Shown here: positions 13,920-54,675 of the stretch, piece by piece | How positions within the stretch are numbered: the first letter of the stretch is position 1 | How the letters are laid out: each line of letters begins with the position of its first letter | Assembly: GCA_020723185.1 (NCBI GenBank) | Contig: DYJI01000007.1 | Location: 59,003 to 123,002, forward strand | Direction: 5' to 3' | Source of the DNA: Sideroxydans lithotrophicus | GTDB lineage: Bacteria; Pseudomonadota; Gammaproteobacteria; Burkholderiales; Gallionellaceae | Length of the DNA: 64,000 nt | The notes under the pieces: model-generated | What the model was told of the DNA's origin: nothing | What the model saw: only the letters and a program-made list of their open reading frames with translations | Databases searched by the model: none | Made by a program: the position numbers and the translations under genes

Positions 13920-15164
13920 ATGCTGGAAACCCTCTTCTTTGTTGCCGTGCTGCTGTTGCTTGTCGCGATGCTGGCGCTGCAACTCAGGCAACCTACTCGT
14001 ATCGCGCAGATGCTGGAACAGCAGCATCGCGCCATGCTCACCGACCTGGCTGACGGCCTGAACAAGCAGGGTGACCGCATGATCGCCGCGCAGGCTGCCG
14101 AGTCGGAGCGGCTGCGTGCCGCAGTGGGCGAAGAGTTGCGCGCCACGCGCGATGCCATCGGCGCGTTGCGTACCGAGATGCTGGCGCAGATGCTGGAGAA
14201 GATGGCGGAGCAGGGGCGCGCCGACCAGAAGCTGATCCAGGACTCCTTCAACAACGCCTCGCAACACCTGCGCACCAGTATCGAGACGCTGAGCAAGACC
14301 GTGGACGGCCGTCTGGAACAGATCGGCGGCAAGGTGAACGAGCGTCTGGACGAAGGCTTCAAGAAGACCAATGAGACCTTCGTCAGCGTGATGGCACGCC
14401 TGGCGACCATAGACGAGGCGCAGAAGAAGATCGATGGGCTCACCACCAACGTCGTCAGCCTGCAGGAGCTGCTGGGCGACAAGCGTTCGCGCGGCGCGTT
14501 CGGCGAGGTGCAGCTGGAAGGGTTGGTGCGCAACATCCTGCCGGTGCAGGCTTTCGAGATGCAGTACACACTGCCCAACGGTACGCGCGCCGACTGCGTG
14601 CTCAAACTGCCGGAACCGACCGGTATGGTGGCGGTGGATTCCAAGTTCCCGCTGGAGAACTATCGCCGCATGCTGGACGGTGAAACGGGTGCGGAGAGGC
14701 AGTTCAAGGCCGACCTGAAGAAACATGTCGACGACATCGGCGGCAAGTACATCATCCCCGACGTGACCTCGGACGGCGCGGTGATGTTCATCCCGGCCGA
14801 GGCGGTATTCGCCGAGATCCATGCGCATCATCCCGACCTGATCGAATACGCCATGCAAAGACGGGTGTGGGTGGTGTCTCCGACCACGCTGATGGCGGTG
14901 CTCAACACCGCGCGCGCGGTGATGAAGGACGTTGAGACGCGCAAGCAGGTGCACATCATCAAGGACGAGCTGGGCAAACTGGGCAAGGAGTTCGGCCGTT
15001 TCGACGAGCGTATGAAGAAACTGGCCGACCACATCCGCCAGGCGCACGAGGATGCGCAAAGCGTACGCACCACCAGCGAGAAGATCTCGAAACGCTTCAT
15101 CAGCATCGAGCAGGTCGATCTGGATCATGCACGGACTTTGCCCGGTCCCGCATCTGATGATTGA
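13920..15164 (+). CDS. rmuC: DNA recombination protein RmuC
   Basis: N-terminal TM and coiled coil; RGAFGEVQLE, VDSKFP, VMFIPAEAVF, SPTTL motifs. Confidence 0.92.
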   Translation: MLETLFFVAVLLLLVAMLALQLRQPTRIAQMLEQQHRAMLTDLADGLNKQGDRMIAAQAAESERLRAAVGEELRATRDAIGALRTEMLAQMLEKMAEQGRADQKLIQDSFNNASQHLRTSIETLSKTVDGRLEQIGGKVNERLDEGFKKTNETFVSVMARLATIDEAQKKIDGLTTNVVSLQELLGDKRSRGAFGEVQLEGLVRNILPVQAFEMQYTLPNGTRADCVLKLPEPTGMVAVDSKFPLENYRRMLDGETGAERQFKADLKKHVDDIGGKYIIPDVTSDGAVMFIPAEAVFAEIHAHHPDLIEYAMQRRVWVVSPTTLMAVLNTARAVMKDVETRKQVHIIKDELGKLGKEFGRFDERMKKLADHIRQAHEDAQSVRTTSEKISKRFISIEQVDLDHARTLPGPASDD

Positions 15165-47675: not shown

Positions 47676-49700
<2,025 letters not shown>

Positions 49701-49708
49701 GTCGAACC

Positions 49709-49750
49709 ATGAAAGTTAGCGTCCTCTTTGTCTGCATGGGCAATATCTGA
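49709..49750 (+). pseudogene. 5' stub of a low-molecular-weight protein-tyrosine phosphatase gene, interrupted at attL
   Basis: Translates MKVSVLFVCMGNI-stop. This is the VLFVCxGNICRS P-loop with the second Cys codon read as TGA, and integrase lies 52 nt downstream. Confidence 0.85.
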
Positions 49751-49769
49751 AACGCCCGCAGGCAATGGA

Positions 49770-49802
49770 CTTGTAAAACTTTAGTAAAATCCTTGTAAAG
49801 TC
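49770..49802 (+). repeat. Three 11-bp-period direct repeats, candidate integrase arm-type sites
   Basis: CTTGTAAAACT / TTAGTAAAATC / CTTGTAAAGTC between the junction and the int stop. Confidence 0.6.
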
Positions 49803-50912
49803 TTACCCGACTTTTACCCACTCGTCACCACGCACGTCGCGGTAAATTGCGGTGGTGGCAGCATCTTTGTGGCCAGCGATTGCTTGGGCATAATCCCCGC
49901 CTTGGCTCTCGGTGTAGAGTCGGATCGACAGGCTGCGGATTTCGTGGAAAGAGGGCGGGGTTTTGCCGTTCTCCCCCTTGATGCCGGCTAGGTCTCGTGC
50001 ACGGGCGAAACCCTTGGAGATGGTATCCACCCATACCTGATCACCAGGCTTGGATAGCGACCTAGGACGGGTGTGGTGAACAAGCCAGCGGCTGACGATG
50101 TTATCTCGGCATGCTTTGACGGTGGACGACAAGGAGAAACCAGCTATGCAGGTGTCGAGAGGGATGCTGACCTTGTTTTTGGTCTTACCTTGAATGACGT
50201 AGAGCCGATCATCAATCCATGCGGTCGAGTCTTTTCCACGCCGGAATTCGAGGGCTGCGATATCCTCCCTGCGCTGAGAGGTGAGCAAGGCCAGCTCCAT
50301 GGCTCGCGATATCCATGCATCAAGCTTCAAAGCCTGTTCGTAGATAAGCATGAAGTCTGGCAGTGTTAGGCGAGATCGATTGACTACGACTGTGGGCGCT
50401 CGTGTTTTTGCTGCAAGATTGTCTTCAGCCCAGCCTTCCTCAACGGCATCTTTCCAAATGTCCACTGCAGCTGAACGCATTGCTAGAGCCATGCGGGGGC
50501 GATCTTCGTAGCTATCCAGCACCTCTACCAATTGTCGCACCTTGATTTCTGAAAGATGGGTACCGGCCCCCAATGCCTTCTCCCATGCGCGGCCAGTGCT
50601 AGCTTTGTTTTTCAGAGTGTTCGCGGCAAGCTTGCGCTTCTTCTCACACAATTCAAGATGGCGCGACAGTACGCGACCAAATGTTGGAGAGCTTGGTTTG
50701 TTCTCGACGATGGTAGATAGACGCGTTGTGGCAATACTTGCATAGATAGCGCTGTTCAGTGCCATCGTGTCTGCTATTGCCTGCTCTTTGTTGGATCCGA
50801 GACCATGGCGCTTTCCGGAGCGAGGATCGCGATAGGCGTAATACACCTTGCCAGAGGTTTTATCCTCGGTGCGGTATAGATTCATTGGCAAATTGTGACG
50901 ACGTGGCCTCAT
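49803..50912 (-). CDS. int: Lambda-type tyrosine integrase with N-terminal arm-binding domain
   Basis: N-terminal RPRRHNLPMNLY..YYAYRDPRSGK; catalytic R (SQRRED), K, HxxR (FHEIRSL), GH and Y (YRDVRG). Confidence 0.95.
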   Translation of the reverse strand: MRPRRHNLPMNLYRTEDKTSGKVYYAYRDPRSGKRHGLGSNKEQAIADTMALNSAIYASIATTRLSTIVENKPSSPTFGRVLSRHLELCEKKRKLAANTLKNKASTGRAWEKALGAGTHLSEIKVRQLVEVLDSYEDRPRMALAMRSAAVDIWKDAVEEGWAEDNLAAKTRAPTVVVNRSRLTLPDFMLIYEQALKLDAWISRAMELALLTSQRREDIAALEFRRGKDSTAWIDDRLYVIQGKTKNKVSIPLDTCIAGFSLSSTVKACRDNIVSRWLVHHTRPRSLSKPGDQVWVDTISKGFARARDLAGIKGENGKTPPSFHEIRSLSIRLYTESQGGDYAQAIAGHKDAATTAIYRDVRGDEWVKVG

Positions 50913-51127
50913 GCCGCGTGGAGTATTTGCAGTGCGCGTGGTGACATTTCCATATTAGTGCATTGTACAACCACTGGAGTGCGGACCGCATTCTCGTCCA
51001 CCATGTAGCAGGTACCAACTTTTTCGGCGCCTGCAATCTGTCCTGTGGCCGCCCACGAGCGCAATATTCTGATTGATGGAGAGGGGCTATAGTGGCGGCG
51101 CCCCCAGTCTTGAAGGGTGACTTTCAT
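50909..51127 (-). CDS. xis: Excisionase (lambda Xis-like)
   Basis: 72 aa; TLQDWGRRHYSPSPSIRILRSWAATGQI; GGAG RBS; ATGA coupling to int. Confidence 0.85.
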   Translation of the reverse strand: MKVTLQDWGRRHYSPSPSIRILRSWAATGQIAGAEKVGTCYMVDENAVRTPVVVQCTNMEMSPRALQILHAA

Positions 51128-51155
51128 GGCGTTTACTCCAGAATTAACGCCGATG

Positions 51156-51196
51156 AGTGTAGAGCACTAAACCCTTAAAGGTCAAGAAGACTAAAC
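51156..51196 (-). promoter_or_regulatory. xis-int promoter overlapped by two 16-bp operators
   Basis: Minus strand TTGACC-N18-TACACT; operators at 51157-51172 and 51181-51196 match those at 52256-52318. Confidence 0.8.
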
Positions 51197-51209
51197 CCGC
51201 AAGGCAAAA

Positions 51210-51497
51210 TTAAGTAGATTTTCCAGAATTTCTAGCGAGTCGATCGGCTTGTCGGTCCAGACTTCTGGACGTGGCGGCCAAGCTGGTGGCGGTTGCCCGG
51301 ATGAGTTCAAGCACGTCATCTGCTGTGTCGACAGGCTGCCAATCTTCCGGCTTTGTGTGGCCAGATACCACCAAAGGATCTTCCATCATGCGCGTGCGGA
51401 AATCCTCATATGCCACCTGAGCCAATCTCTTGGCGCGTCTGTTGATGCGCGCAATCTGGCTATTGGTGAGCTGTGGCTGAATGGGAGTGTTCGCCAT
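51210..51497 (-). CDS. Hypothetical 95-aa protein downstream of the antisense RNA (candidate antirepressor/effector)
   Basis: AGGA RBS and ATG 51497; no family recognised; position matches that of C4-controlled genes. Confidence 0.65.
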   Translation of the reverse strand: MANTPIQPQLTNSQIARINRRAKRLAQVAYEDFRTRMMEDPLVVSGHTKPEDWQPVDTADDVLELIRATATSLAATSRSLDRQADRLARNSGKST

Positions 51498-51549
51498 GAT
51501 GGCTATCCTGGGCCTGGTTGGTTTTCACCGTCACTGATTGGAATGAGGA

Positions 51550-51620
51550 GGGTGGCAATACGGGTTGACAGACCGGAACCAAGGAACCGGCAGAGCTTTC
51601 GCTCTCCCACACTGCCACCC
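51550..51620 (-). ncRNA. C4 (P1/P7) / CI (P4)-like antisense RNA
   Basis: Three-way junction: 15-bp closing stem GGGTGGCAGTGTGGG/CCCGTATTGCCACCC, AGAGC-GAAA-GCTCT hairpin, (G)CCGG-loop-CCGG(T) hairpin and single-stranded CTGTCAA. The loop and bulge are complementary to an upstream site. Confidence 0.82.
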
Positions 51621-51644
51621 AATAGGGGGCGTGTTTACGGACAT

Positions 51645-51668
51645 AAAAAAGCCGCGGTGCAGGCGGCT
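51645..51668 (-). terminator. Rho-independent terminator between the antisense target and the antisense RNA
   Basis: Minus strand AGCCGC-CTGCACC-GCGGCT followed by TTTTT. Confidence 0.75.
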
Positions 51669-51674
51669 GATCCG

Positions 51675-51693
51675 CTTGGTTCCGAGCTGTCAA
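51675..51693 (-). promoter_or_regulatory. Antisense target site (a1/b1- or seqA-like)
   Basis: TTGACAG-CTC-GGAACCAAG pairs with CTTGGTTCC-GGT-CTGTCAA of the RNA (18 of 19 positions, including one G-U). Confidence 0.8.
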
Positions 51694-51723
51694 ACTCGAC
51701 CGGCAATTTGTGCTGGCCCGCGC

Positions 51724-51752
51724 AGTATGCCTATCAGCGAATTTTGTGTCAA
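51724..51752 (-). promoter_or_regulatory. Near-consensus sigma70 promoter driving the antisense-RNA transcript
   Basis: TTGACA-N17-CATACT; no GTTTAG operator overlaps it. Confidence 0.8.
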
Positions 51753-51886
51753 AAGTGGAAAGGCTCTATCAGGCAACCAATTTGAGGGTAATTTTGGCGG
51801 TAACTCTGATTGCGGTTTTGCTTGCGAGGTAACTGTGTGCGAGCAGCACAGAGAATAGCTTCAGTTGAATTTGAAGCTGAATAACG

Positions 51887-52255
51887 TTATTGGGTCGCCT
51901 GCTTTCTTTGGGTTTGGGGAGCGCCACTATCTCCGTCTGGTTCAGCGAGCGGAGTAATGATTTTGACAGCATCTTTCCGACGGCTTTCGCTCATTGCCTC
52001 CATGATCTTCATTGCCTGGCGAATACTTGGATCAAGCTTCATAGGGCCATCTCCAAGCATCATCCAGCGAGCACTAAACCCAGTGGTTTCCTCGAGCTTG
52101 TATGCATAACGGGGGGCGAAAGACTTAATCAGCCCGGACTGGAGCTGATTCGCAACTGACTTGGACATCCCGCAAAGCTTGCCGAACTCGGTGTCCTCAT
52201 CGATTCCGAGCTCTTGTTTGACGATGGCAATGCGCTCGGGGATTGTTGTTTTCAT
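51887..52255 (-). CDS. CI-like XRE repressor without an S24 peptidase domain
   Basis: 122 aa; N-terminal HTH pattern and FSARWMMLGDG motif; divergent from the cro-like gene. Confidence 0.8.
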   Translation of the reverse strand: MKTTIPERIAIVKQELGIDEDTEFGKLCGMSKSVANQLQSGLIKSFAPRYAYKLEETTGFSARWMMLGDGPMKLDPSIRQAMKIMEAMSESRRKDAVKIITPLAEPDGDSGAPQTQRKQATQ

Positions 52256-52319
52256 GTTTAGACATTAAAACAATTCAAGTTTAGAAGGATTGACTGTCGC
52301 AGGTTTAGTGTTCTACACT
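52256..52319. promoter_or_regulatory. OR-like region with three 16-bp operators and divergent promoters
   Basis: GTTTAG-N4-TAAAAC (52256), GTTTAG-N4-ATTGAC (52279), GTTTAG-N4-CTACAC (52303); rightward promoter TTGACT-N18-TACACT. Confidence 0.8.
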
Positions 52320-52325
52320 GAAAAC

Positions 52326-52547
52326 ATGGACAGCGAGGAACTCAAAAAACATCGGGCACTAATCGAGCAGATAGGCACCGTGCCCCTCATGGTGATGTTC
52401 GACATCAGCAAGGGGGCGATATCTCAATGGCGCAGCAATGGCATCCCAAAGGCTCGCCTGATGTATCTGGAATTGAGTCATCCAGAATTGTTTTCTGACT
52501 CTCCAAAGTCCAAATCGTCAAAAAAGCCACGCAAGGAAACACTATGA
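52326..52547 (+). CDS. Cro-like HTH protein
   Basis: 73 aa; FDISKGAISQWRSNGIPKARLMYL is a typical Cro/transcriptional regulator pattern. Confidence 0.8.
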   Translation: MDSEELKKHRALIEQIGTVPLMVMFDISKGAISQWRSNGIPKARLMYLELSHPELFSDSPKSKSSKKPRKETL

Positions 52548-52783
52548 GTGGCAGCAATACCAGTTTGAACGCGCGCAAATCAGGTGACGGTTGTTTGCTC
52601 AGGTGTCTCCTTCACACGTTATCTGAGTCGCTGCGAGGGGTATGGGTGCCCCGGGCAGTAACACTGCTGCGCGTTCCCCTTTCTAGGTTCGCTCGGAATA
52701 CACAGAGCGAATCACAACCTCAAGACTACAACAAATCATCTCACTGGGTGCTGGTCGCCTCACCATCGAAGGATCATCGATGA
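52544..52783 (+). CDS. Hypothetical 79-aa protein at the cII-equivalent position
   Basis: ATGA overlaps with both cro and rep; no family recognised. Confidence 0.45.
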   Translation: MSGSNTSLNARKSGDGCLLRCLLHTLSESLRGVWVPRAVTLLRVPLSRFARNTQSESQPQDYNKSSHWVLVASPSKDHR

Positions 52784-53874
52784 GGCAAAGGACTATCAGT
52801 GACGACTTCTGGCGCGACTCACAAATATGGGGATTGAGCCAAGAGGATACTGCGACCCTGCTGTATCTACTCACCAGCCCATCCTCCAACATCATCGGCT
52901 GTTACCGCGTGGTGTGGCGGATAGCTGCCGCAGAGATGGGCTGGACCGCCGATCAAATGCTAGTTGTGGTCAAGCGCCTGCAGGAGAAAGACCTCATTGA
53001 ATACACAGATTCAGGCTGGGTCTGGGTGAAGATCTGGTGGCGGCATAACTCCACGGCCGTTGCCCTGAATCCCAAGTCGAAGCTCATCAAGCATGCGCGG
53101 AATCAGTTTGCCGACATCCCAAGAGATTGGCTGGACGCCTTCGGGAAGAGCCTGGAAGCGCTTGGGATCAACACGCGCGAAATCGGGTTTCCAAGCCCCA
53201 TCAAGGCGGCACCAGATGCCCCATCTAATACCCCATCTAATACCCCATCTAATACCCCTTCTGATGCCTCATCACATGCCTCATCAGATGCCTCATCAGA
53301 TGCCTCATCAGATGCCTCATCAGATGCCCCATCGGAAAACGTGAAAACCCATCAACAACGGGGTTTGGATGCCCCATCAGATGCGGCACCAGATGCCCCA
53401 GGGGATGGGGCCGGGGGTAACAGGTATCTGGTATCTGGTAACACCACCACCACAAGCTCCTCCTCCCAAGATGGCAAACCCGTGGTGGTGGTGCCAGATT
53501 TATTTTTTCCACCCCCAACCCCCCAACCCGAGCGTGACTCGATCCAGGCGGTATTGGTCAGCAGCGGTGTCGCCGAGGAATTCTGGCAGATGCTCGTTGA
53601 TGAGCTGTACGGCGCTCGCATGCATCGAGAAATCAGCAATCCGGTGGGCTACATCCGCGGGATGGCCGAACGGGCGATCAGCGGCACCTTTACCCCGGAA
53701 CGCGGCATCAATGTGGCGAAGAAGCGGGAAGAGGCTGCCGCTCAGGCACGGCAAGACGAGGCACAAAACAAGGCATTTCTGGACAGCCAACGCCCAGCAG
53801 ACGAAGTGCTGAGCCGCCTACCAGCTCGCACAAGCGCTTTCTTGGAAAAGATGACGGGAGGACATTCGAAATGA
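52780..53874 (+). CDS. Phage-type replication initiator-like protein
   Basis: N-terminal ISDDFWRD...LLYLLTSPSSNIIGCY...AAAEMG winged-helix pattern; central repeat tract; C-terminal ISNPVGYIRGM. Confidence 0.7.
   Translation: MRQRTISDDFWRDSQIWGLSQEDTATLLYLLTSPSSNIIGCYRVVWRIAAAEMGWTADQMLVVVKRLQEKDLIEYTDSGWVWVKIWWRHNSTAVALNPKSKLIKHARNQFADIPRDWLDAFGKSLEALGINTREIGFPSPIKAAPDAPSNTPSNTPSNTPSDASSHASSDASSDASSDASSDAPSENVKTHQQRGLDAPSDAAPDAPGDGAGGNRYLVSGNTTTTSSSSQDGKPVVVVPDLFFPPPTPQPERDSIQAVLVSSGVAEEFWQMLVDELYGARMHREISNPVGYIRGMAERAISGTFTPERGINVAKKREEAAAQARQDEAQNKAFLDSQRPADEVLSRLPARTSAFLEKMTGGHSK
53215..53400 (+). repeat. Intragenic 12-bp tandem repeats (iteron-like) plus a small inverted repeat
   Basis: Ten in-register units at 53215-53334 (AATACCCCATCT x2-3, GATGCCTCATCA x4-5), then AAACCC...GGGTTT, then further GATGCCCCATCA-like copies from 53368. 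Confidence 0.85.
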
Positions 53875-54179
53875 GCACCACCAATTCCTTGCAAAAGGAC
53901 ATCGTGACGCTGAATCGGCGATTCCTGTTGGTTGTCCAGCAGATGGCCAACGCAAAGCATCCTCTCTTGGCCCCCTGTGTTCCTGGCTGGCTGATGCAGA
54001 AAGTGCGCAACATGACGCTTGAGGAGATCGATGCACTTGCAGAAGACATGATCGCACCTTGCTTCCATCTGAATCTTCAGGAGGGGCACTTCGACCAGAT
54101 GAAAGAGATCCCTCAAGGATCTCGACGCAAGGCGTATTTGGCCAATGTGGTCGCCACTCACTCGGCTTCCCATGCTTAA
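53871..54179 (+). CDS. FlhD-like activator subunit (SetD/AcaD analogue)
   Basis: DIVTLNRRFLLVVQQMA...MTLEEIDALA...CFHL pattern; precedes the FlhC-like gene. Confidence 0.72.
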   Translation: MSTTNSLQKDIVTLNRRFLLVVQQMANAKHPLLAPCVPGWLMQKVRNMTLEEIDALAEDMIAPCFHLNLQEGHFDQMKEIPQGSRRKAYLANVVATHSASHA

Positions 54180-54675
54180 CGAGACCATTGCACAAACGCA
54201 GGCTTTTGCCACGACCCTGATCAGGGATGGCATGCGCATAGCGCTTGTGCACTCCATTACCGGAATTGCCCGGCACCATCTGCTGGATTTGCGCAAATCG
54301 ATACATGGGGACGATGCGCCGATGCAGGGGCGGATGCCGAACGACACCATGGCGTACATCAAGAGCGGCCAGTCCACAGTTGCGCTCGCGACGGTGGTTG
54401 CGGTGTACGTTGGGGCAGAGAAAAAACACAAGTCGCCGGTTGAAGCGTTTATGGACGCATGGGCGGTGGCAAAGTTGTTTGCAGATGGCGCGACTCCGCT
54501 GGACATCAATGCCGCTTGGTATGCGGTGCGCGATGTCAAAGCCGGCCTGATTACATGGGCCTACTGCAAAAACTGCAAGGCAGGGTATCTACTCGATACC
54601 AAGCAAACAAAAAAGACAGACATCTGTCCTTACTGCGGCGCTCAGAAACAAAAGCAGATCGAGGTGGCCCAGTGA
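54172..54675 (+). CDS. FlhC-like activator subunit (SetC/AcaC analogue)
   Basis: GMRIALVHSITG N-terminus, LDINAAWY, C-terminal Zn site CKNC...CPYC. Confidence 0.8.
   Translation: MLNETIAQTQAFATTLIRDGMRIALVHSITGIARHHLLDLRKSIHGDDAPMQGRMPNDTMAYIKSGQSTVALATVVAVYVGAEKKHKSPVEAFMDAWAVAKLFADGATPLDINAAWYAVRDVKAGLITWAYCKNCKAGYLLDTKQTKKTDICPYCGAQKQKQIEVAQ

Follow-up and report, generated by a model that had tools for sequence, protein, structure and literature searches.

In phage lambda the promoter PL, which is repressed at OL, also feeds xis and int, and the immunity region has the layout OL/PL-rexBA-cI-PRM/OR/PR-cro. The lambda rightward order is cro - cII - O - P - Q. Those integrative conjugative elements (ICEs) that belong to the SXT/R391 type integrate at the 5′ end of prfC via IntSXT. 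The region analyzed here, positions 51156–52319 of a 64,000 nucleotide (nt) stretch of Sideroxydans lithotrophicus contig DYJI01000007.1 (the whole stretch is termed the window), is probably a lambdoid-type immunity region of an ICE, in which the repressor would directly silence both the leftward promoter of xis-int (PL) and the rightward promoter (PR) that faces cro.

The four SetR operators of SXT/R391 are found only between s086 and setR (PMC4542580). The int and xis genes of these elements are SetCD-dependent and are expressed from two promoters, and SetR is cleaved after SOS induction (PMC4542580, PMC5812530). The original prediction, made from the letters of the window, had contrasted this wiring with a direct co-repression of excision and transfer at the present locus, and its account of the SXT/R391 side is correct. 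In ICEBs1 the repressor ImmR directly represses Pxis (PMC5812530), and in phage P1 expression of Ant is controlled by C1, C4 RNA and Icd (PMC8201110). For the timing of excision and transfer, the reference model is that of the FlhDC-type ICEs (SXT/R391) and of the genomic-island-mobilising IncC plasmids; in this model excision is one tier below the repressor.

The gene order in the window is uvrB, int, xis, a left pair of sites, orf95, a non-coding stretch, the repressor gene, three sites, cro, orf79, orf364, flhD-like, flhC-like and tra genes. The sites, promoters and regulatory genes, all of which were found where they had been predicted, are the following:

52256–52271, plus strand: site O3, GTTTAGacatTAAAAC, directly after the repressor start codon (CAT 52253–52255)
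52279–52294, plus strand: site O2, GTTTAGaaggATTGAC, which holds the −35 hexamer TTGACT (52290–52295)
52303–52318, plus strand: site O1, GTTTAGtgttCTACAC, which overlaps the −10 hexamer TACACT (52314–52319)
51196–51181, minus strand: distal site OL2, GTTTAGtcttCTTGAC, which holds the −35 hexamer TTGACC (51185–51180)
51172–51157, minus strand: proximal site OL1, GTTTAGtgctCTACAC, which overlaps the −10 hexamer TACACT (51161–51156)
52279–52319, plus strand: PR/OR block, facing cro, with a predicted transcription start site (TSS) at 52326
51156–51196, minus strand: PL/OL block, facing xis, with a predicted TSS at about 51149
51887–52255, minus strand: repressor gene, 122 amino acids (aa), with an XRE/434-type helix-turn-helix (HTH) and two C-terminal helices
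52326–52547, plus strand: cro-like gene, 73 aa (PHROG DNA-binding protein 1.5e-08; Pfam P22_Cro 0.0068, sub-threshold)

The two clusters of sites are about 1.15 kilobases (kb) apart with the repressor gene between them. Start-to-start spacings are 23 and 24 base pairs (bp) at cro and 24 bp at xis. The three 16-bp sites at cro lie inside the 70-bp interval between repressor and cro, with O3 abutting the repressor ATG as had been proposed, and their centers are at −15.5, −39.5 and −62.5 relative to the predicted PR start.

The resemblance of the two blocks is not of a kind expected by chance. The 41-bp pattern GTTTAG-N4-NTTGAC-N8-GTTTAG-N4-CTACACT has exactly two matches in the 64 kb, at cro and at xis, even when up to three mismatches are allowed, and 0.00 matches are expected from 100 dinucleotide-preserving shuffles. 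This bears out the claim of one design at both promoters. The cro and xis blocks are identical at 29 of the 41 positions, and the next best match to the cro block in the window has 23. A blind promoter scan of positions 49600–54200 gave only three matches, two of which are TTGACT-18-TACACT (52290–52319, plus strand) and TTGACC-18-TACACT (51185–51156, minus strand); the promoters that had been read by eye at the blocks were thus recovered independently. The operator pair overlaps the only promoter-like site upstream of xis-int, so that the absence of operators at int and xis that is characteristic of SXT does not hold here.

The claim of five pseudo-palindromic sites holds in part. Four fit GTTTAG-N4-CTAAAC with at most two mismatches; these are the only matches at that threshold, all of them in the two clusters (0.45 expected; none of 100 shuffles reaches four). 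O2 needs three mismatches. The assignment of O2 as a putative operator is based on its position and conservation, not on its palindrome score. GTTTAG alone is not over-represented in the window (7 copies, 7.8 expected), and five of the seven copies are inside the two clusters. With a weight matrix built from the five sites, these score 18–24 bits and the next best sequence scores 12.9 bits (128 kb, both strands together). The scan of the rest of the element that the original prediction had called for covered about 24 kb, and no further operator sites were found by motif or weight matrix at 49.7–64 kb or in the approximately 10 kb beyond, apart from a lone palindrome in a related locus (L127) that is described below.

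The proposed mechanism would be as follows. Two sigma-70 promoters that share one design fire outward from either side of the gene for the 122-aa HTH repressor, and in each of these the −35 and −10 hexamers lie in the right halves of two 16-bp sites, GTWTAG-N4-CTANAC, that start 24 bp apart. Repressor dimers at O1/O2 and at OL1/OL2 would exclude RNA polymerase. PR, with O1, O2 and in addition O3, would drive cro, orf79, an O-like replication gene, the flhDC-like activators and the F-type tra genes, while PL, with OL1 and OL2, would drive xis-int directly. The excision and transfer cascade would be off when the repressor is present, and both parts would fire together when it is inactivated; Cro acting on the same sites would lock the switch. 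From these features we infer the binding, the TSSs, cooperativity or looping between the clusters, and the route of induction. The FlhDC-like activator may additionally act at xis.

Co-repression of excision and transfer is consistent with every comparative test that was run, and direct control appears well supported by comparison. The repressor family comprises 26 proteins, all metagenomic. The loci compared are 18 full-length ones (L001–L018) and five more, with repressors 62–99% identical; the sources are metagenome-assembled genomes labelled Gallionellales, Gallionella and Sideroxydans, and groundwater-type metagenomes. A further 67 distant matches (L019–L085) share the N-terminal HTH only, mostly at about 55% identity, and were set aside; 19 of them were inspected and have another gene context with no divergent cro. 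The cro-side design is present in all compared loci, and a second block is found on the repressor strand, 620–1080 nt downstream of the repressor start, in every locus that is long enough. O1 and O2 are invariant among relatives whose repressors are 80–99% identical, and O3 is kept in the window, in L006–L010, in L004-type relatives and in phage relatives.

An alignment of 13 PL regions (53% mean column identity) shows GT.TAG, CTTGAC, G.TTAG and G.TCTA.ACT to be invariant, as are two columns of the downstream flank, while the distal site's N4 and the N8 that separates the sites vary freely. The GTTTAG elements are at about −47 to −42 and −23 to −18. RNA polymerase imposes no such constraint at these positions, and this pattern is the one predicted for a protein-binding site. 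The half-site embedded in the −10 region also matches between the two promoters of an element, being CTACAC in one GTTTAG-type subgroup and CTATAC in another. The divergent group L003/L005/L130/L131 has a related half-site, GTMTAR, at both promoters. A distinct operator type in L003/L005 was considered but is weakened by L130/L131/L134, and all sites fit the degenerate form GTNTAR-N4-YTANAC.

The genes behind the PL block differ among the loci. The window, L001 and L002 have an Exc-type Xis and a lambda-type Int; L006/L007, L011, L014, L015, L003 and L005 have an HTH_17 excisionase and a 338-aa integrase; L012/L013 have a DUF1233-like excisionase and an Arm-DNA-bind_2 integrase. In the prophage-type loci L004 and L016, phage early-left genes, RecT among them, take this place. 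Whatever the module, its first gene is always 20–120 nt behind the block. The L006/L007 repressor is 99% identical to that of the window, though the xis/int module is a different one, and the window and L007 are 95% identical up to the block, 93% inside it and 51% beyond. Similarity stops right after the −10 (junctions at 51156/51155 in the window, 9099/9100 in L007 and 5048/5049 in L012). A metatranscriptome contig joins just positions 51155–51197 to another leader and gene. Since the block is constant while the downstream modules are swapped, it would belong to the repressor module, with recombination modules being exchanged precisely where its transcription begins. No fewer than three unrelated xis/int modules thus appear to have been plugged in directly behind one promoter-operator block. 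On the other side, the ICE backbone of cro, orf79, orf364, flhD, flhC, SLT, OmpA, traA and following genes is also found in L003, L007, L010, L012 and L013, and L004 has phage replication genes in its place.

The exact block is also present in 40 viral contigs (pattern scan of IMG/VR). An open reading frame (ORF) for an HTH protein of the family is beside the block in 27 of the 40, and in nine, two blocks 0.8–2.8 kb apart face outward on either side of a repressor homologue, whose ATG adjoins a third site as in the window. Several of these HTH ORFs are fused to Peptidase_S24. FlhC or FlhD was found in none of the 40 block-bearing contigs. Presence of the block with repressor homologues in phages that have no FlhC/FlhD indicates that the sites go with the repressor/cro pair and not with the FlhDC-like activator. 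The design would thus be a common immunity-region type of metagenome-recovered phage contigs that has been adopted by an ICE.

Other than a PHROG match (transcriptional repressor 5.8e-06), the sequence similarities of the repressor are weak (434 repressor profile E 0.6 and HTH_3 E 0.073). The AlphaFold2 (AF2) model (pLDDT 78) has five HTH helices plus two more, and Foldseek matches are to the P22 c2 N-terminal domain (TM 0.71), 434 Cro/repressor, XRE-type regulators, SinR, and the arbitrium-phage and SPC32H repressors; the TM for P22 c2 and 434 Cro/repressor is about 0.7 on the target. The protein thus models as a 434/P22-type HTH protein. No Peptidase_S24 (LexA-like cleavage) domain was found in the Pfam search or in the AF2 model.

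The cro ATG is 6 nt after the −10 (52314–52328) with no Shine-Dalgarno sequence, and the distance from the −10 to the ATG is 6–7 nt in all 14 ICE-type or close relatives; for this reason the cro mRNA is probably leaderless. A −10-like TAATGT (52267–52262, minus strand), overlapped by O3, is 6 nt before the repressor ATG, and relatives keep TAWYGT-N6-ATG even when they have lost the O3 half-site. This conserved hexamer suggests that the repressor mRNA is leaderless too. LexA control through a LexA-box-like sequence that overlaps the cro start, CTGaaaacatggACAG (52318–52333), was considered and rejected: its fourth position does not fit CTGT, L001, L006/L007 and L011–L015 have not retained it, and it is probably due to chance. 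Public RNA consisted of Logan contigs of four metatranscriptomes. Run X27 covers the whole region evenly and looks like DNA or background. The end at 52319 of a contig of run X25 (51679–52319) was rejected as a mapped 5′ end, as it coincides with a strain polymorphism at 52320 (g versus t in L006/L007).

The genes that flank the immunity region in the window are:

47676–49700, plus strand: uvrB, whose 3′ end adjoins the integrase gene
49803–50912, minus strand: tyrosine integrase of lambda type, 369 aa (Pfam Arm-DNA-bind_1 3.8e-17, Phage_integrase 3.3e-13)
50909–51127, minus strand: excisionase Xis, 72 aa (Pfam Exc 1.1e-07; PHROG excisionase 2.3e-11)
52544–54675, plus strand: remainder of the early operon, with orf79, orf364, flhD-like (53871–54179) and flhC-like (54145–54675)

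Xis is encoded by the first gene behind the leftward promoter, its ATG is preceded by a GGAG Shine-Dalgarno sequence, and the integrase ORF overlaps the xis stop codon. In the early operon, the orf364 product has a DnaD/replisome-organiser-like N-terminus (PHROG DnaD-like helicase loader 6.5e-16), and the flhC-like product matches Pfam FlhC (1.2e-11), with the flhD-like gene directly upstream; the flhD-like homologue in L131 has a weak FlhD match. No plasmid-borne FlhC-family protein is more than 34.5% identical to the FlhC-like protein, and no DNA match was found in the plasmid database. The label “transfer operon” in the original prediction needs qualification, for the operon that begins with cro is really an early operon (cro, orf79, O-like, flhDC-like), although it does run without sizeable gaps into genes for an SLT transglycosylase, an OmpA-like protein and F-type traA/L/E/K/B/V/C (NCBIfam). 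In the approximately 10 kb past the window, as seen in the same element family, are traF, traH, traG and then a Rha-family gene. The element, which has been inserted beside uvrB, is thus an ICE whose mating apparatus is of the F type. It belongs to an undescribed ICE family from Gallionellaceae-type groundwater bacteria; no account of this family or its switch was found in the literature.

In the window, the integrase gene and the end of uvrB are 103 bp apart (interval 49701–49802), and there is no tRNA gene anywhere in the window. tRNA genes adjoin the elements in L007 (10424–10497) and L003 (8483–8915), and the integration sites vary along with the int module. Positions 53180–53330 of orf364 encode low-complexity repeats (PSNTPSNT...SDASSDASS) whose length differs between strains; one run skips 55 nt at 53220–53276, with seven other letters (GCTCCCG) instead, and repeat numbers in the relatives differ as well.

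Between the repressor gene and PL is a further set of features on the minus strand:

51752–51724: promoter-like TTGACA-17-CATACT, from the promoter scan
within 51645–51752: isrK / c4-a1b1-like RNA segment (isrK 37.4 bits, c4-a1b1 24.8 bits, both below the gathering score)
51693–51675: C4 target TTGACAG-CTC-GGAACCAAG, an exact complement of the C4 loops, in a single exact copy
51668–51650 plus U run: intrinsic terminator inside the isrK/c4-a1b1-like segment
51550–51627: C4 antisense RNA gene of P1/P7 immI type (Rfam RF01695, 51.0 bits against a gathering score of 45, E 4.5e-9)
51210–51497: orf95, accessory gene between repressor and PL

The C4 match is full-length (model positions 1–87) and shows the consensus three-stem structure. 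C4 is at or above the gathering score in L007 (51.0 bits) and L001 (46.4 bits) as well, and the cassette of promoter, isrK-like segment and C4 is conserved in L001, L002 and L007. A second (a2b2) C4 target was not detected near orf95, where there is no copy with two or fewer mismatches for the b element, and a duplex of C4 with the leader before orf95 is no better than in shuffles. The X25 contig is deeper than its neighbours, and it carries a sequencing adapter at position 51679, in the middle of the C4 target (GGAAC|CAAG); this position could reflect cleavage of the C4-target duplex, or chance.

The orf95 product has no Pfam or PHROG family match. It is kept at 67–94% identity in L001, L002 and L006/L007 and is absent from L010–L015. 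The Rha-family (Phage_pRha, antirepressor-like) protein whose gene follows traG (L126 16401–17096, L128 12796–13494) has a C-terminal half that is 46–52% identical to the orf95 product, which is thus a candidate antirepressor-type domain. Since a LexA-type cleavage domain is missing from the repressor, the switch is probably induced through an antirepressor. Candidate inducers, by inference only, would be orf95, which is behind the C4 RNA, and the post-traG Rha-family protein, which share a domain. There is no terminator between orf95 and xis.

Several observations weigh against direct repression of both promoters as described, or against parts of that model. O2 is a poor palindrome, and with three mismatches allowed the number of matches in the window is not above chance (9 found, 6.9 expected). 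O3 is lost in several close relatives (L001, L002, L011–L015), and the third position of the half-site tolerates any base. A clean covariation of repressor and operator was not found: the recognition-helix change N36G splits the subgroups, yet L133 has G36 together with a perfect GTTTAG-N4-CTAAAC site, and N36G does not track operator type. A repressor mRNA that starts at the ATG would place O2 at about −31.5, which is a repressing position and not an activating one as in lambda PRM. The X25 contig (depth 12.7) spans all three OR sites, unlike a purely leaderless repressor mRNA. In addition, the same-strand promoter upstream of orf95, with its C4 module, could also read into xis-int.

The last point is part of the alternative that fares best, which is nevertheless unlikely. 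The xis-side pair of sites may serve mainly as an OL-type looping partner that tightens control of PR and the repressor promoter, with xis-int driven chiefly by the FlhDC-like activator or by read-through from orf95/C4. The clusters are about 1.15 kb apart and flank the repressor gene, as do OL and OR in lambda; the unit of promoter, C4 and orf95 is conserved just upstream on the same strand, with no terminator before xis; and int and xis of SXT are SetCD-dependent. However, the sites are within a complete −35/−10 promoter whose hexamers are as invariant as the half-sites and which always has a module gene 20–120 nt behind it, and the block is also found in L010–L015, which have no orf95/C4, and in phages with no flhDC. 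Looping and promoter occlusion are moreover compatible with each other.

It is improbable that Cro or another factor binds the sites and that the 122-aa protein is not the master repressor of PL. The 122-aa protein does lack a significant Pfam match and has only weak similarity to the 434 repressor, Cro has an HTH too, and the missing covariation of recognition helix and operator would fit such a case. Yet the block accompanies homologues of this very HTH in ICEs and phages, beside or around the gene, and some phages have this HTH joined to Peptidase_S24, the hallmark of cI-type repressors. The repressor gene is also divergent from cro with a tripartite operator between them, and the structure search gives phage repressors.

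That the likeness of the blocks (29 of 41 shared positions, with the same −10 variant within each element) is a relic of duplication or gene conversion with no present regulatory meaning is scarcely credible, given that spacers differ freely while half-sites and hexamers are invariant over repressors 62–99% identical, and that the arrangement has stayed intact although the downstream module was replaced independently at least three times.

Direct silencing of PL and PR by the repressor is thus retained as the preferred reading, and a further feature of the repressor locus may add to it:

51769–51886, minus strand: ORF of 40 codons in the +1 frame, which passes over the repressor stop; peptide NNVIQLQIQLKLFS...LKLVA

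The +1 frame continues from the repressor linker and is found at the same place in L001–L019 and L130–L134. Alone among the frames, it is open in all 12 relatives compared, and the stop position is kept in 11 of the 12. The peptide is conserved in all 25 loci that carry it, of ICE as well as phage type, and these comprise every locus of the full-length repressor family whose sequence reaches past the repressor stop. L019, one of the 67 distant matches, carries the peptide and thus appears to be a truncated member of the full-length family. The first dozen or so codons differ mostly synonymously, and there is no conserved start codon. No protein in a database of 5.8 billion sequences shares words with the peptide, and no in-frame fusion was found there. 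As the ORF lacks its own start codon, programmed +1 frameshifting or unusual re-initiation is suggested, and the ORF may accordingly represent a frameshift-made repressor isoform or an unusual small gene. A hairpin at 51878–51857 was rejected as the repressor terminator, as it is inside the conserved +1-frame coding stretch and is read through by the RNA contig.

There may then be two regulatory layers beyond those of lambda and SXT, a frameshift isoform with a beta-strand/helix tail and a C4/orf95 cassette transcribed into xis-int, but this is doubtful. If it were so, the tail of the isoform could change repressor oligomerisation or stability, and lifting the RNA brake could inactivate the repressor and at the same time provide excision functions.

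Other sequences related to the operators or to the immunity region were seen. A lone near-perfect palindrome, GTTTAGTTATCTAAAG, is located at 14406–14421 of L127, 17 nt upstream of a cargo type ISP restriction-modification gene; apart from it, the approximately 24 kb of element scanned has no operator-like site outside the immunity region. A 13-mer, GAGCACTAAACCC, at positions 52069–52081 inside the repressor gene (codons G-F-S-A-R-W) is common to the xis-proximal operator region, and GGGTTTAG in the repressor gene is kept in close relatives and not in distant ones; the 13-mer is most simply explained by coding constraint, an intragenic half-site being possible. The prophage-type loci L004 (13304–13498) and L016 (6825–7016) have an RT-15 RNA (Rfam RF03018, 165–170 bits) a few kb from the immunity region.

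With respect to the reference model, excision here would be on the same tier as the activator genes, through a re-used phage PL/OL-PR/OR design, and the element thus offers a natural comparison of direct and cascade control. As to the evolution of such wiring, the promoter-operator block would travel with the repressor, and unrelated xis/int cassettes would plug in at the transcription start. The relevance is mainly to the regulation of mobile elements, and no principle is overturned.

The cassette upstream of PL is similar to P1/P7 immI in that a C4 RNA is located behind its own promoter and before a small gene related to the antirepressor family, with a perfect upstream a/b target. Unlike in immI, only the upstream a1b1-type target was found, with no a2b2 near the orf95 ribosome-binding site; the weight-matrix scan shows no repressor operator at the C4 promoter; and orf95, at 95 aa, is not Ant-sized.

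ICEBs1 likewise has a phage-like HTH repressor with no self-cleavage domain acting over the xis promoter (PMC5812530). There, however, a single Pxis drives xis and the transfer genes, whereas the present element has two look-alike promoters; int is in the repressor operon of ICEBs1 and follows xis here. An adjacent protease, ImmA, inactivates ImmR, whereas no ImmA-like gene is adjacent here (orf95 having no Pfam or PHROG match), and the tier of an FlhDC-like activator is found only in the present element.

Also comparable are SXT/R391 and the IncC elements with AcaCD. Shared features are a cI-like repressor divergent from a cro-like gene, FlhD/FlhC-like genes in the cro operon, F-type conjugation and, with SXT/R391, the ICE lifestyle. 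In contrast to SXT/R391, the present element has an operator pair on the xis-int promoter and this promoter adjoins the repressor gene, while the SXT int and xis promoters are at the other end of the element. The repressor has no S24 domain and is not of the SOS-cleavable SetR type, and the element and its relatives have integrated next to uvrB or tRNA genes rather than in prfC.

The layout is that of lambda in several respects. The int and xis genes are leftward behind PL, operator clusters are found on both sides of the repressor gene, and cro is transcribed divergently. The site spacings of 24 and 23 bp are those of lambda OR1-OR2-OR3, with the left pair here 24 bp apart, and the operators overlap the −35 and −10. 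The accessory cassette is downstream of the repressor gene, at the position of lambda rexAB, and an O-like replication gene is behind cro, the PR operon here being cro - small gene - O-like - activators. Unlike lambda, PL is fused directly to xis-int, with no N, antitermination or intervening early-left genes; there are two OL sites and not three; the repressor is a 122-aa protein with no S24 autocleavage domain; and cro is predicted to be leaderless, rather than the repressor only. The PR operon ends in flhDC-like and conjugation genes and not in Q and lysis/morphogenesis genes, and the OL-OR distance is about 1.15 kb compared with about 2.4 kb in lambda. The arrangement is therefore not novel in principle, as lambda PL and ICEBs1 Pxis are precedents; it is new for an FlhDC-type ICE and differs from the SXT/R391 wiring.

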